Of a stretch of DNA of 57,097 nt, positions 7,289 through 44,779 are shown piece after piece. Position numbers and translations under genes: made by a program. The notes beneath the pieces were generated by a model that was not told the DNA's origin, ran no database searches, and saw only the letters and a list, made by a program, of their open reading frames with translations. How positions within the stretch are numbered: position 1 is the first letter of the stretch; every line of letters begins with the position of its first letter. This DNA comes from an uncultured Bacillota bacterium (GTDB lineage Bacteria; Bacillota; Clostridia; Christensenellales; UBA1242): NCBI GenBank assembly GCA_949296805.1, contig CASFPO010000049.1:1-57097 (forward strand), read 5' to 3'.

Positions 7289-8425
7289 CTACTTTTTTAT
7301 TATTCCCTTTAAATAAGTATCAAGATACTCAAAGGCCTTATTTTTAAATTCTTTTGTCACTTTGTAAAATTGCCCAGCAATTGCACACGAAATTGCACAA
7401 AGCGTGTCGCTGTCTCCACCAATTGAAATGCTTGTCCTTAAACAGTCTTCAAAACTGTTTGAAATTAAAAAACAATAGATCGCTTGAGGCACTGTTCCTT
7501 GACAAGTTTCATTAAACTTGTAGTTCTTTCTTAAAGTTTCATAATCAAAGTCTAATTTGTAATAATTCTCTTCAATATACTTCTTGATCTCTTCTTTGCT
7601 TTTCTTCTTTTTTGCAAGAAAGATTGCAACCGCAGTAGCCTCTGCCCCTTTGATACCTTCTCGATGATTATGTGTTACTCTGGTCACTTCATTGCTAAGT
7701 TTTTTTACTTGATTTATATCTTGAGCAAACATCGCCACAGCACTTATCCTCATTGCCGAGCCATTTCCAAAACTTTCATATGGCGATTGACTTTCAGAAA
7801 ATAGCCAATTTTTAAAGTCAGTTCCATAGCCACAATTTTCATATTTTCTACCAACTTCATTTATGCAAATTTTTGTCTGCTGAAAAAGATTGCTATAATC
7901 TCCCTTGCAATCTCTGAATGCTTTGTACACTGCCAAAGAAAGCACTGTGTCGTCAGTAAATTTACATTCTTTTGTAAACAAAGGACACTCTTTTGTGCGA
8001 ATATTGTTATTTTCATATGTCGACCCTGCAATGTCGCCAACAATTGCACCAATCAGCGGGCTTTTATCCAATCTTTTTTTGCTGATTTTTTTATCTTTAA
8101 TCGCCTGCTTTTCTTCTATTTTCAACCTTTCAACTTCGGCAATCTCATCATCTTTTAAAAGCATATCTCCAATACGTGTAACCACAGAACCTGCAACAAT
8201 CATAAGTATAAAAGGCACTGCAACCATCCACGCAACAAAGGCATCTTCCGTTTTAGTCTCAAAGAAAAGCACAAAAAATGTTATAAACGAGGCAACAAAA
8301 CCTGCGAGTCCAATACCAAGCGTCAAACCACCAGCAATCAAATATATCTTTTTAATCTTTTTGGCTTGTTCTTCATTATGTTTTGCCCTTACCCTATCAT
8401 TAATCTTTTTAATATAACTCTCCAT
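7289..8425 (-). CDS. ADP-ribosylglycohydrolase (DraG/ARH family) with an N-terminal two-helix membrane domain
   Basis: GAIVGDIAG, FTDDT, SFGNGSAMR, THNH, GGDSDT motifs; two hydrophobic segments in the first ~90 aa. Confidence 0.88.
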   Translation of the reverse strand: MESYIKKINDRVRAKHNEEQAKKIKKIYLIAGGLTLGIGLAGFVASFITFFVLFFETKTEDAFVAWMVAVPFILMIVAGSVVTRIGDMLLKDDEIAEVERLKIEEKQAIKDKKISKKRLDKSPLIGAIVGDIAGSTYENNNIRTKECPLFTKECKFTDDTVLSLAVYKAFRDCKGDYSNLFQQTKICINEVGRKYENCGYGTDFKNWLFSESQSPYESFGNGSAMRISAVAMFAQDINQVKKLSNEVTRVTHNHREGIKGAEATAVAIFLAKKKKSKEEIKKYIEENYYKLDFDYETLRKNYKFNETCQGTVPQAIYCFLISNSFEDCLRTSISIGGDSDTLCAISCAIAGQFYKVTKEFKNKAFEYLDTYLKGIIKK

Positions 8426-8604
8426 AACTTATCCTTTATATTTTTAATATTATCATAATTGTTTAAAAAAAGTAAACAAATTTACAAATCTACTTTAAAA
8501 TGTTACAAAAAATGTCAATTTATCAACAAGTATAAAATAATTACTAAAACTTTAAAAAATTTTGCTTTTACAAAATAAAGAATTTAACCTTTTAATAAAA
8601 ATAC

Positions 8605-8633
8605 TTGCAAAAAGATAAAATATAATGTATAAT
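8605..8633 (+). promoter_or_regulatory. Sigma-A promoter of the tRNA-Leu transcript
   Basis: TTGCAA-17 bp-TATAAT. Confidence 0.75.
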
Positions 8634-8661
8634 AAAAAGGCAAACTAAATGCCTTTAATTT

Positions 8662-8819
8662 GCGGATATGGCGGTTTGGGTTCCCTTAAAATGTTATTTT
8701 AAGGGTAAAAGTGGCAGTTTGGAGTCCCTGCAAATTGCAAATTTGTGGGGTAAAGACGCGCTGGATTTAAAAATCCAGCGAAAAACAAATCAAATTGTTT
8801 CGTCGTCTGCCATTCCGCC
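8662..8819 (+). repeat. Interrupted tRNA-Leu 5' half followed by an interrupted antisense copy
   Basis: GCGGATATGGCGG / TGGCAG / AGACGCGCTGGATTTA match the tRNA in order, separated by hairpin inserts. AAATCCAGCG and CGTCTGCCATTCCGCC are reverse complements of the tRNA. Confidence 0.8.
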
Positions 8820-8847
8820 TAAGTGAAAAATTGATAGTAAATGGTAT

Positions 8848-8929
8848 GCGGATATGGCGGAATGGCAGACGCGCTGGATTTAGGTTCCAGTCCGAAAGGG
8901 TGCAGGTTCAACTCCTGTTATCCGCACCA
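8848..8929 (+). tRNA. tRNA-Leu(TAG)
   Basis: GCGGATA/TATCCGC acceptor stem, CTGGA-TTTAGGT-TCCAG anticodon arm, long variable arm, GGTTCAACTCC T arm, encoded CCA. Confidence 0.96.
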
Positions 8930-8931
8930 GA

Positions 8932-8967
8932 GAAAAGCAATCCGAATCGCTGGGTTGCTCTTTTTTG
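8932..8967 (+). terminator. Terminator after tRNA-Leu
   Basis: AGCAATCC...GGGTTGCT stem followed by a T run. Confidence 0.7.
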
Positions 8968-8968
8968 T

Positions 8969-9358
8969 ATAAGAAAACCACAAGCAGTGCTTGTGGTCCC
9001 AAAAGGTTTCTAGCTATGGACATCAAAAACCTCCTATGTTAAAGTATAGTTGAAGTTTTGCTGCTTTAACTAAAAACATAGGAGGTTTTTGTATATGAAC
9101 TTAGATATAAGTAGTTTAGCACATACAAAGTATAATTGCAAGTATCATATAGTATTTGCTCCAAAATATAGGAGACAATAATATATGGAAAGATTAAAAA
9201 GGATATAGGTGTAATGATTAGAAAATTATGCCAATATGAAGGAGCAAAGATAATAAAGGTCGAACAAGCGGCAGAACTTCGCCAAACATTTAAGATTATG
9301 CTGCAACAGGTCCTAAAAGGGCAGCGCCAACTACCAGTTAAGCTGGTAGTTATGATTT
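8969..9358 (+). mobile_element. tnpA: Internally deleted IS200/IS605-family remnant (tnpA pseudogene)
   Basis: From the ATG at 9095 it reads MNLDISSLAHTKYNCKYHIVFAPKYRRQ* and continues out of frame (YGKIKKDIG...LC), the Y1 transposase N-terminus. RBS-sequestering inverted repeat AAAAACCTCCTATGTT/AACATAGGAGGTTTTT; hairpins at both ends. Confidence 0.85.
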
Positions 9359-42841: not shown

Positions 42842-42970
42842 GTGAAAAGAAAAACACAAGTTATTATTATTGAAAATCACAATCACAAAGAAATTGGAAT
42901 TCCATTTTATCAATTTATTTTAAAAACATTACAAAATCAAAAAGGAGAAACAAAAAATGAAGAAAAATAG
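42842..42970 (+). CDS. 42-aa ORF overlapping the recombinase start (not in the ORF track)
   Basis: AAAGGAGG RBS and GTG start; MKRKTQVIIIENHNHKEIGIPFYQFILKTLQNQKGETKNEEK*. Confidence 0.55.
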   Translation: MKRKTQVIIIENHNHKEIGIPFYQFILKTLQNQKGETKNEEK

Positions 42971-44768
42971 AATATTAAACGATAAACAAAAATATGTTGT
43001 GGGTTATTGCCGTTTTAGTAGTGATAATCAAGGAATAGAAAGCATAGAAGGACAACAAAAGGAAATTTTAAGATATGTAGAGAATAATGGTTTGATACTT
43101 TTAAAATGGTATGTTGATGAAGCAAAAACAGGAACATCAGCAAATAGGAAATCATTTTTACAAATGATTGAAGATGGTAAAAAACAAGAATTTGGACAAG
43201 TCCTTGTTTATCAATTAGATAGATTTGCAAGAGATGAAGAAGATAAGGTTATCCATTTTGTAAGTTTAAGAAAAAATGGTATTAAAGTAGTTTCTGTAAC
43301 TGAACATTTTGACGACACGCCAGAAGGAAAGCTAATGGAAGCAGTTGTGAGTGGTATCGCCGCATATTATTCAAGAGATTTGGCGAGAAAGACACTGCGA
43401 GGTATGAAACTTAATGCTGAAAAAGGATTTAGTAATGGTGGCACAACTCCATATGGTTATAAACTTGTCCCAAGACTTGACGAAAACAATAAACCTATGT
43501 TCCACAAAAAAGGTCACGCGTTACACAATATAGCAATCAACCCAGAACAAGCAGAAGCAGTTAAAATTATGTTTGATATGACAATAAAAGGTTATACAAG
43601 GCACGAAATTATAGAGCAACTAACCAAACAAGGTTTTAGAAAAGAAAACGGCGAAAAGATAACAGGAACTTTTATTGACCATATATTAAGAAATGAAAGA
43701 TATACGGGTGAATATTGGTATTACTATAACAAAAAGAACATAAATTTTAACCCAGAAAGTGATGATTATAGAATTCGTATCACAAAAGGTTTTGACCCTA
43801 TTATTTCAAAAGAAGATTTTAATACTGTTCAAAAAATCTTGGAAACAAGAAGACACAAAACACCAACAAATGCACAAGAAGATTACTTATTAACTGGCAA
43901 AATTATATGTGGAGAATGTGGTTCAAATTATAACGGAATGCGATGTAAAAGACACGGAAGACCCTATGTTTATTATCAATGCACTGACCAACATAGTTAT
44001 AAAAACGGACAAAAAAGAGAAAAATATTGCCATAATAACACAATTCGTAGAGATGAGATTGAAAAACTTGTTATAGATAAAATTAAAGAAATTGTCTTTA
44101 CTGATAATCTAGTTGAACAAGTTTTAGATAACTATAACAAATTTGCCATTGAAGAAAGTAAAAATAATTCTATGATTGAAATGCTTGAAAACAAAATAAA
44201 AGACTATGATAATCAAATGAAAAACATTACTAATGCTATCGGTCAAAATACTGCAAGTTATTCAATACAAGTGCTACTTGATAGATTACACGAACTTGAA
44301 CAAAATAAAAAACAAACAACAGAATTACTTGAAAAAGAAACGATTGGAAATAATTCTTTAACCACAACCGTAAAAGAAATATTAAAAGTTTATCAGAAAG
44401 CTCAAAAAATTCTTGATGGAGATGATATTCCAGCAAAACGAGCTATTATAAACAACTTTCTTAATAAAGTAGTTGTCAAACAGGATACAGTTGAAGTTTA
44501 CCTTAATTTATTGCCTTTAACTTGCTCTGCTTTCCTTGATATTGACATATTAAAAAATAACTTATTTATGGGAGATTTAAGTGTTGGAGATTGGGATTTT
44601 GCTGAATACCCAGATTACCCAATTACAACATTAAAACAATATAGGGAGTATAAAGAAAAACCCAGCACAAGATTTATTCCATCTTTTACTGGGCTAAATA
44701 CAATTGGCTCCCCAGGTAGGATTCGAACCTACGGCCTATCGGTTAACAGCCGAGCGCTCCACCACTGA
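42957..44768 (+). CDS. Large serine recombinase
   Basis: YCRFSSDNQ catalytic motif, LDRFAR, PYGY, recombinase domain, LLTGKIICGECG zinc ribbon, coiled coil. The last 20 codons run antisense through tRNA-Asn. Confidence 0.95.
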   Translation: MKKNRILNDKQKYVVGYCRFSSDNQGIESIEGQQKEILRYVENNGLILLKWYVDEAKTGTSANRKSFLQMIEDGKKQEFGQVLVYQLDRFARDEEDKVIHFVSLRKNGIKVVSVTEHFDDTPEGKLMEAVVSGIAAYYSRDLARKTLRGMKLNAEKGFSNGGTTPYGYKLVPRLDENNKPMFHKKGHALHNIAINPEQAEAVKIMFDMTIKGYTRHEIIEQLTKQGFRKENGEKITGTFIDHILRNERYTGEYWYYYNKKNINFNPESDDYRIRITKGFDPIISKEDFNTVQKILETRRHKTPTNAQEDYLLTGKIICGECGSNYNGMRCKRHGRPYVYYQCTDQHSYKNGQKREKYCHNNTIRRDEIEKLVIDKIKEIVFTDNLVEQVLDNYNKFAIEESKNNSMIEMLENKIKDYDNQMKNITNAIGQNTASYSIQVLLDRLHELEQNKKQTTELLEKETIGNNSLTTTVKEILKVYQKAQKILDGDDIPAKRAIINNFLNKVVVKQDTVEVYLNLLPLTCSAFLDIDILKNNLFMGDLSVGDWDFAEYPDYPITTLKQYREYKEKPSTRFIPSFTGLNTIGSPGRIRTYGLSVNSRALHH

Positions 44769-44779
44769 GCTACTGGGGA
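44705..44779 (-). tRNA. tRNA-Asn(GTT)
   Basis: Minus strand reads TCCCCAGTAGCTCAGTGG...GGCT-GTT-AACCG...GGTTCGAATCC...TGGGGAGCCA. Confidence 0.96.

Follow-up and report, generated by a model that had tools for sequence, protein, structure and literature searches.

Split sense and antisense copies of tRNA-Leu in a tRNA leader: a probable unit of a genus-specific repeat family

Genes for transfer RNA (tRNA) are usually seen as compact and inert. In the 1.12-Mb draft genome of an uncultured Bacillota bacterium (G000; 49 contigs, 36 tRNA genes), the gene for tRNA-Leu(TAG) is preceded by a leader in which part of the same tRNA is written in sense, split by two hairpins, and then again in antisense. 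The locus lies on contig C49, of which 57,097 nucleotides (nt) are called the window below; coordinates are window positions unless another contig is named. The question raised by this locus is what such a leader represents: a control device acting on its own tRNA, the remains of an integrated element, an error of assembly, or a repeat with a history of its own. The best explanation of the stretch 8662-8847 is that it is one unit of a genus-specific family of DNA repeats tied to tRNA-Leu genes. The feature is real and the family is uncatalogued; a self-perpetuating DNA repeat seems a better description of it than a proven control switch. Genomes (G), contigs of G000 (C), loci (L) and sequencing runs (X) carry our own serial labels.

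Architecture of the unit

The unit and the tRNA gene that it copies consist of the following parts, given 5' to 3'.

8662..8674, + strand: sense copy of tRNA positions 1-13 (5' strand of the acceptor stem, positions 8-9, 5' strand of the D-stem), exact
8675..8711, + strand: hairpin module H1, at the position of the D-loop; 10-bp stem of 8683-8692 with 8696-8705, supported by covariation in the family
8712..8717, + strand: TGGCAG, equal to tRNA D-loop positions 16-21, between H1 and H2 (pattern match C49:8712-8764)
8718..8755, + strand: hairpin module H2; 11-bp stem of 8726-8736 with 8740-8750, two G-U pairs
8754..8769, + strand: sense copy of tRNA positions 20-35 (3' strand of the D-stem, position 26, 5' strand of the anticodon stem, start of its loop), equal to 8867-8882 at 16 of 16 positions
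8771..8780, + strand: antisense of tRNA positions 24-33, forming with 8759-8768 a perfect 10-bp hairpin (palindrome)
8783..8800, + strand: small A/U hairpin of 6 bp in the place of the variable arm, predicted by folding
8804..8819, + strand: antisense of the tRNA D-arm, positions 9-24; perfect 16-nt reverse complement of 8856-8871
8820..8847, + strand: A/T-rich spacer of 28 nt before the tRNA, not conserved across species
8848..8929, + strand: intact tRNA-Leu(TAG), predicted by ARAGORN and scoring 57.8 bits with the tRNA model of Rfam

The order is sense (8662-8769), antisense (8771-8819) and sense again (8848-8929), the last part being the tRNA gene itself, the only one for its isoacceptor in G000. 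Positions 8661-8674, which comprise one leader base and tRNA positions 1-13, are repeated identically at 8847-8860. H1 and H2 are related to each other, measure about 37-38 nt each and split the sense copy at its would-be D-loop. This split was overlooked in the initial annotation of the window. What that annotation did describe, namely a copy of the tRNA 5' half ahead of tRNA-Leu, its fold-back into antisense at the anticodon arm and 16 nt complementary to the D-arm of the tRNA downstream, agrees with the parts listed above; the tRNA-matching segments are 8662-8674, 8712-8717 and 8754-8769. The antisense 16-mer has two occurrences in the 57-kb window and none in 100 dinucleotide shuffles.

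Repeats of 13-16 nt in close proximity, in a metagenome-assembled genome of 49 contigs, invite the suspicion of an assembly artefact, and misassembly had indeed been named as a possible undoing of the feature. We consider it practically negligible, as the layout is reproduced by contigs of two studies and dozens of other assemblies show the same architecture. A contig of metagenome run X1, which may be the sample of origin, covers 8300-8869 without any difference, and three overlapping contigs of run X2, from another study, cover 8300-8891 with few differences. Both runs also hold variant contigs in which 8717 is joined to 8793, so that the unit lacks H2, and metagenome contigs of at least 90% likeness carry a back-joint from 8823 to 8661, which indicates tandem units; variant contigs of this kind may stem from related strains or species. 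A contig from an RNA library (record 16 of run X16) joins an antisense motif to the start of a next unit; DNA can occur in RNA libraries. Contigs from the two RNA runs, X15 and X16, fall mostly on the tRNA and on the remnant of an IS200-type element behind it, and their thin cover of the leader carries no weight.

Range and variation of the family

A BLAST comparison of the leader with relatives, proposed as a check in the initial annotation, matched only the tRNA part. The family emerged when each tRNA's own words were sought upstream of it, and then through searches with sequence patterns. In the first draw of TAG loci from the genus, a unit was found in 4 of 17 (that of the window and 3 of the 16 others), each matching its own tRNA, and tRNA-Leu(CAG) of G000 is preceded by a unit of the same design as that of the window. 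Genome G005 has a 100% identical tRNA with a plain leader and no unit. The pattern GGCG...GGCAGACG revealed the D-loop hairpin in many genomes, often in tandem. Only 4 of the 18 matches to the pattern TGGCAG..CGCGCTGG were true, the remainder being mostly due to chance; a loose pattern scan of genome contigs likewise gave chance matches in GC-rich genomes, L118 being the only true unit among the matches listed.

A covariance model (R1) was then built from 29 seed units of 18 sources. It matched 71 of the 151 genomes of the genus at E<=1e-3, with at most 15 matches in a single genome. The best match reached E<=1e-9 in 41 of the 151 genomes, roughly a quarter of the genus, and about 17 of these 41 had supplied seeds. 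The other 80 genomes gave no match even at E<=1e-3, which speaks against a generic cis-regulatory leader. The range outside the genus was gauged on a draw from the order: none of its 146 genomes, which represent 94 genera other than this one, was matched at E<=1e-6. As far as searched, the family is confined to one genus. Rather than a singular design at one gene, the stretch is one unit of a repeat family whose copy number varies.

At 28 of the best 30 loci an intact tRNA-Leu gene stands no more than 250 nt from the unit and shares its strand; the other two loci are cut by contig ends. The genes that neighbour the units are ordinary, at most loci housekeeping genes, and vary from locus to locus. 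Units are present in one to four copies per locus, measure about 115-190 nt each and stand upstream of TAG, CAG, TAA and, once, AAG isoacceptors, each unit copying the tRNA that adjoins it. An upstream unit begins with tRNA positions 1-13, followed by a hairpin module (H) and by tRNA positions 16 to about 35-43. Units of the TAG type continue with a linker, the motif GTCTGMCATTCCGCC and a spacer; the linker often contains a small hairpin of varying sequence, and hairpins that differ in sequence occupy this variable-arm place in most of the antisense-bearing relatives. The motif GTCTGMCATTCCGCC is antisense to tRNA positions 9-23. It is kept in 11 of the 17 genomes with TAG-type units, and is missing in the other 6 and in most CAG and TAA units. 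An A stands opposite G19 in 9 of the 11 antisense-bearing genomes, and G000 has the fully complementary C.

Two-hairpin units like that of the window are also present in G079 and G112; these two genomes have their unit types in common but differ in how many units they carry and in how these are arranged. The gene upstream of the window's promoter (7289-8425, - strand) codes for a protein of the ADP-ribosylglycohydrolase family with a long N-terminal extension. Because a neighbour of this family is common to the TAG loci of G079 and G112, the locus is syntenic in those species.

The exact anticodon arm, to position 43, is kept in two genomes (L240, L249), and others have a perfected palindrome as in the window. 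This suggests that the fold-back at the anticodon loop is secondary and that the quasi-palindrome of the arm itself was perfected later. The suggestion of a recombination scar at the anticodon loop, offered as the second choice in the initial annotation, came closer to the truth, except that these two relatives retain the whole arm.

Related copies occur downstream of the tRNA as well. In a permuted form (L095, L096, L098, L101, L102), the antisense of the D-arm is followed by 1-2 nt, 7 nt of sense, H and the remaining tRNA to CCA, antisense and sense meeting at a 7-bp palindrome. In some genomes this form is preceded by a terminator-like hairpin that ends in a T-run, in another there is none, and the form is sometimes itself repeated. 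Fragments of tRNA 3' ends with H in the T-loop, in the same layout, were found in G000 (C43, C11), L083 and L118. Both copies in L118 precede an identical downstream chromosomal flank, and so represent a duplication rather than a foreign insert.

Partial copies of other kinds accompany further tRNA genes. Plain tandem copies of the 5' half, ending just past the anticodon loop, stand upstream of tRNA-Thr(GGT) on C20 and C24 and of tRNA-Arg(ACG) on C41 of G000. The Thr copies are preceded by a small hairpin built from the tRNA 3' end and its antisense, and the upstream copy on C24 is nearer in sequence to the tRNA of C20 than to the tRNA that it adjoins. Upstream of tRNA-Leu(TAG) in G006 and G011 (L021, L022), a partial copy with H after position 21 is interrupted in its anticodon loop by about 100 nt of structured insert, behind which comes a palindrome of the 3' side of the anticodon stem; a related insert lies downstream of the same tRNA. 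Two tandem partial copies upstream of tRNA-Leu(TAG) in G007 (L024) contain a 42-43-nt insert of non-H type at the same place in the D-loop.

The hairpin module H is about 40 nt long. Its head, GGGKYCCC, is fixed and the hairpin is GC-clamped; the 5' arm is rich in A, the 3' arm is rich in U, and the loop varies. G000 contains about 20 hairpins of this type that share GGGKYCCC, 18 of them outside the window locus, in clusters 80-630 nt behind genes for tRNA-Glu, Ser, Met, Leu(CAA) and Pro or beside fragments of tRNA ends. H thus has the dispersal, as many imperfect palindromes with a conserved head, that marks repeats of the REP (repetitive extragenic palindromic) kind. Composite long repeats behind tRNA genes of G000 (C7 25911-26450, C28 11692-12480, C6 6680-7120, C11 43200-43800) combine H-type hairpins with a second hairpin type (head GGGTACCC), a long hairpin beginning immediately behind CCA, and short pieces that resemble CCA-bearing tRNA 3' ends.

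A link of H to an IS200/RAYT transposase (Y1 type of the HUH enzymes; RAYT, REP-associated tyrosine transposase) was considered and rejected: PF01797 is present in 14 of 154 genomes of the genus and in 4 of the 41 strong-match genomes. The hairpins at the ends of an intact IS200 (C8 of G000) and at the remnant in the window (about 8977-8997) are not of the H type. Reverse transcriptase and IS110 are represented by one gene each in G000, neither of them near units. SbcD gave only a partial match below threshold (52.6 against 77.65 bits), which is uninformative on the tolerance of palindromes.

Origin and possible roles of the unit

Three further features frame the unit and the tRNA.

8605..8633, + strand: promoter-like site TTGCAA-17-TATAAT, 10 of 12 positions, the best in 8300-9100; would drive leader and tRNA
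8636..8656, + strand: 7-bp hairpin at the predicted 5' end of the transcript, found by folding; a similar hairpin has the same place in G079 (L087)
8936..8965, + strand: terminator after tRNA-Leu; at further tRNA-Leu loci (L003, L010, L093, L246) terminators of this type are found together with large serine recombinase genes

The promoter is the one proposed in the initial annotation, and the site scan of 8300-9100 found no further promoter-like site on the + strand between it and the tRNA. With slightly better than even confidence, we read the unit as a product of duplication and inversion of the tRNA gene that carries a palindromic module, is kept by recombination and is transcribed only through its position in the leader. 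A local duplication-inversion, by template switching at the tRNA gene's own hairpins, would have produced the order sense-antisense-sense; the quasi-palindrome of the anticodon arm would then have been perfected in some lineages, and H would have been acquired at loop positions. Recombination between the direct repeats (leader end and tRNA 1-13), or slippage, could add, remove and multiply units, and the same recombination would hold the copy identical to the real tRNA. Lying between promoter and tRNA, the unit would be transcribed as a 5' leader, which RNase P would remove; it would be tolerated because it is a partial copy without the 3' acceptor strand. Within a three-way junction, the split sense copy could meanwhile keep the antisense paired. 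No dedicated host function is assigned to the unit under this interpretation.

The order sense-antisense-sense with junctions at inverted repeats, as left by template switching, is seen in the window; the permuted downstream form shows antisense followed by sense. Units with the exact anticodon arm (L240, L249) next to units with the perfected palindrome are consistent with quasi-palindrome correction, a concept that appears in two articles (PMC8794818, PMC7202029). That the unit is patchy in occurrence, varies in copy number, is found downstream as well and can do without its antisense counts for a DNA repeat. We regard it, with moderate confidence, as a by-product rather than a regulator.

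Several observations weigh against this interpretation. In the 29 units, 97% of the cells of the H stem are paired, with double changes in 4 of its 8 pairs, and a G-U pair recurs at one position in nine units, as expected only if the strand that folds, be it RNA or single-stranded DNA, is the tRNA-sense one. The covariation score of H is 0.396, compared with 0.168 in shuffled alignments (0 of 500 reach it) and 0.04-0.10 in slid ones. If the fold-back hairpin is included, 93.4% of cells are paired, and 44 double-change cells stand against 13.3 in shuffled (0 of 500) and 1-10 in slid controls, a count that overstates independence because the rows are related, partly tandem copies. Conserved structure with covariation, as in structured leaders generally, is therefore present. 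The antisense motif has been kept while the spacers around it diverged beyond alignment, and the small hairpin between the anticodon-like hairpin and the antisense recurs with changing sequence. Where the tRNA copy has insertions, they are restricted to loops (13/14, 21/22, anticodon loop, T-loop). Such structural constraint is not expected of a decaying by-product. Furthermore, all upstream units share the sense orientation and lie within the transcription unit of the tRNA, and the genomes measure only about 1 Mb; 46 distinct H modules are about as alike within genomes (0.755) as between them (0.747), which speaks neither for intragenomic spread nor for vertical descent; no agent that moves H was found; and the steps of origin are read back from end products.

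Of the explanations that give the RNA a role, a cis-acting leader whose masked antisense tunes or quality-checks the output of tRNA-Leu is conceivable, though on the unlikely side. The leader would fold into a helix GGCGG:CCGCC, H, a helix TGGCAGAC:GTCTGNCA, the anticodon-like hairpin and the small hairpin. With the antisense held by the split sense copy, the tRNA would fold and be cut by RNase P as normal; once released, the antisense would invade the D-arm, the 5' strand of the copy would take the 3' acceptor strand and the RNase P site would be looped out. The leader does fold below shuffled sequences (z -6.8 with the tRNA, -4.8 alone). In the minimum free energy structure predicted for 8636-8932, the real D-arm is paired to the antisense 16-mer and the real 3' acceptor strand to the 5' strand of the copy, an exchange of pairings that is predicted in all 9 antisense-bearing relatives folded. 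The mutually exclusive folds of the initial annotation are thus seen in the prediction, but they are weak evidence: the same outer helix is predicted in 6 loci without antisense, which marks the pairing with the acceptor strand as a product of the energy model, and this model ignores tRNA tertiary structure and folding order. Conservation of the paired parts, with variable loops and spacers and with compensatory and G-U changes in H, would suit a cis-acting RNA, as would the antisense kept in 11 of 17 genomes, the constant place of the unit within the transcription unit and, as a weak hint, the X16 contig that joins the antisense to the next unit. Against it stand the lack of the family in most of the genus, including a species with an identical tRNA, the copy number of one to four, the units that do without antisense (most CAG and TAA units and those of 6 of the 17 TAG-unit genomes), the like copies downstream of the tRNA, some of them behind terminator-like hairpins, and the sense arms in arrays that are mismatched to their own antisense. 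Moreover, tRNA-Leu(TAG) is unique in the genome and so must mature efficiently. A generic cis-regulator should be present wherever its gene is and have a demonstrated transcript; neither is the case here, one RNA-library contig hinting at transcription. A working RNA device made from a tRNA 5' half, which would choose between the cloverleaf and a dead-end fold with duplexed D-arm and hidden RNase P site, and in which a protein or a condition would act on H, seems to us rather unlikely. The covariation of H, the conserved antisense, the insertions limited to loops and the persistence in 1-Mb genomes nevertheless keep a cis role of the RNA alive. An action in trans, in which the leader released by RNase P would be a sponge or mimic for a D-arm-binding enzyme or an antisense to other pre-tRNA-Leu, is very improbable. 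The D-arm segment targeted by the antisense is identical in the TAG, CAG, TAA, CAA and AAG tRNAs seen, the D-arm showing no variation within the genus, and the 5' hairpin (8636-8656) may stabilise the transcript; on the other side, there is no evidence of a stable leader RNA, patchiness and copy number object here as they do to the cis-acting leader, and the copy lacks the T-arm and the 3' acceptor strand that most tRNA-binding enzymes need.

The other alternative dispenses with a role of the RNA and takes the unit for the footprint, or a miniature, of a site-specific integrative element: tRNA copy and inverted copy would form an att-type site of a large serine or tyrosine recombinase that targets tRNA-Leu, the body of the element having been deleted or the miniature being mobilised in trans. 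We judge it improbable, even though the setting is suggestive. G000, with 1.1 Mb, has 11 tyrosine-integrase matches and 4 large serine recombinases, several of them next to tRNA genes; a serine recombinase open reading frame (ORF) runs into tRNA-Leu(CAG) on C43; remnants of such an ORF persist at two loci, TAG in G121 and CAG in G010; the window's tRNA-Leu is followed by a terminator of the type found with large serine recombinases; and the junctions of antisense and sense are dyad-symmetric, like recombinase sites. The TAG locus of G010, however, has an intact recombinase and no unit, and most unit loci have other terminators and housekeeping neighbours, with recombinases making up 2 of the 61 ORFs around the 30 loci. 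No element body lies between unit and tRNA at any locus (28 of 30, two being cut by contig ends). The copied part is the 5' part of the tRNA (positions 1 to about 43), matching each local tRNA, where a footprint calls for the 3' part, and a second copy of the 3' end of the TAG tRNA was not found in 5 genomes. The duplicated flank in L118 is chromosomal instead of foreign. A 40-nt hairpin inside the recombinase core is also unlike known att sites. Behind the terminator of the window's tRNA lie an IS200 remnant and a DUF488-like gene, and G121 has a recombinase remnant in that place. Because the recombinase of G010 occurs without a unit and most units occur without this terminator, we treat the island remnant downstream of the tRNA as unrelated to the unit upstream.

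Neighbouring elements and relation to known systems

The window contains further traces of mobile elements. A large serine recombinase ORF of 603 amino acids (42957-44768, + strand; Recombinase domain at 43542-43850) overlaps the antisense of tRNA-Asn(GTT) (44705-44779, - strand) by 64 nt, and the same head-on overlap is found at tRNA-Leu(CAG) on C43; in the genus, tRNA gene 3' ends seem to be the place where islands with this serine recombinase are located. The decayed IS200-type element (8977-9274) has a 10-bp hairpin (8977-8997) and a perfect 17-nt inverted repeat (9024-9040/9075-9091) covering the ribosome-binding site, and six stop codons interrupt the frame of its Y1 transposase (9128-9274). 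A second, short IS200-type fragment lies at 38191-38256.

The family places structured, fast-changing repeats derived from tRNA inside the tRNA transcription units of a genus of small-genome gut bacteria. If the units are by-products, they offer a clean natural record of small-scale duplication-inversion and of hairpin spread at highly transcribed, hairpin-rich genes. Were the RNA to act on its own tRNA, it would represent a new kind of control of tRNA maturation. For annotation, the units matter in that they mimic tRNA starts, break assemblies and inflate leaders.

The impression, recorded in the initial annotation, that no element with this layout had been described has stood up. Among the families of Rfam 15, which include T-box, RtT and ribozymes, only tRNA reached its gathering score; others at E<=10 remained far below theirs, for example Hatchet with 15.7 against 51 bits. 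The literature searched yielded no description of such tRNA-Leu-linked units.

Several known systems nevertheless invite comparison. T-boxes (RF00230) are likewise structured leader RNAs complementary to a tRNA. Unlike the units, they precede mRNAs, read the anticodon and the uncharged 3' end and end in a terminator/antiterminator, none of which is seen here. RtT RNA and the 178-bp repeats of the tyrT operon of E. coli are, like the units, tandem repeats in a tRNA operon transcript, each with a copy of a tRNA end; they lie downstream, however, copy the 3' end of the tRNA, and have neither an antisense copy nor H. The tRNA copies at attL and attR of prophages and islands resemble the unit in being partial direct copies beside an intact gene in a recombinase-rich genome. 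They differ from it in that here the 5' part is copied, the distance between the copies is about 115-190 nt and no element intervenes, the unit includes an inverted copy and a hairpin module, and the local tRNA is matched in each case. Tandem inversion duplications and quasi-palindrome template switches share with the unit the order sense-antisense-sense, junctions at natural hairpins and imperfect repeats made perfect, whereas the scale here is about 100 nt and one layout is found again and again, at four to five isoacceptor loci and in different species.

REP elements with their mosaic assemblies (bacterial interspersed mosaic elements, BIMEs) and the Rickettsia palindromic elements (RPEs) are, as H is, short, GC-clamped imperfect palindromes in many copies, often clustered and often transcribed, with strand-specific imperfections. 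RPEs moreover lie inside genes at tolerated places, as H does at loop positions of tRNA copies. H differs from both in being tied to tRNA genes or their fragments, in its fixed 5' motif GGGKYCCC and in its fixed polarity, and from REPs also in that it is not accompanied by a REP-associated Y1 transposase (14 of 154 genomes). REPs and RPEs, att copies, inversion duplications and the tyrT/RtT repeats are the nearest relatives in kind; each shares some features of the tRNA-Leu-linked units and fails others.

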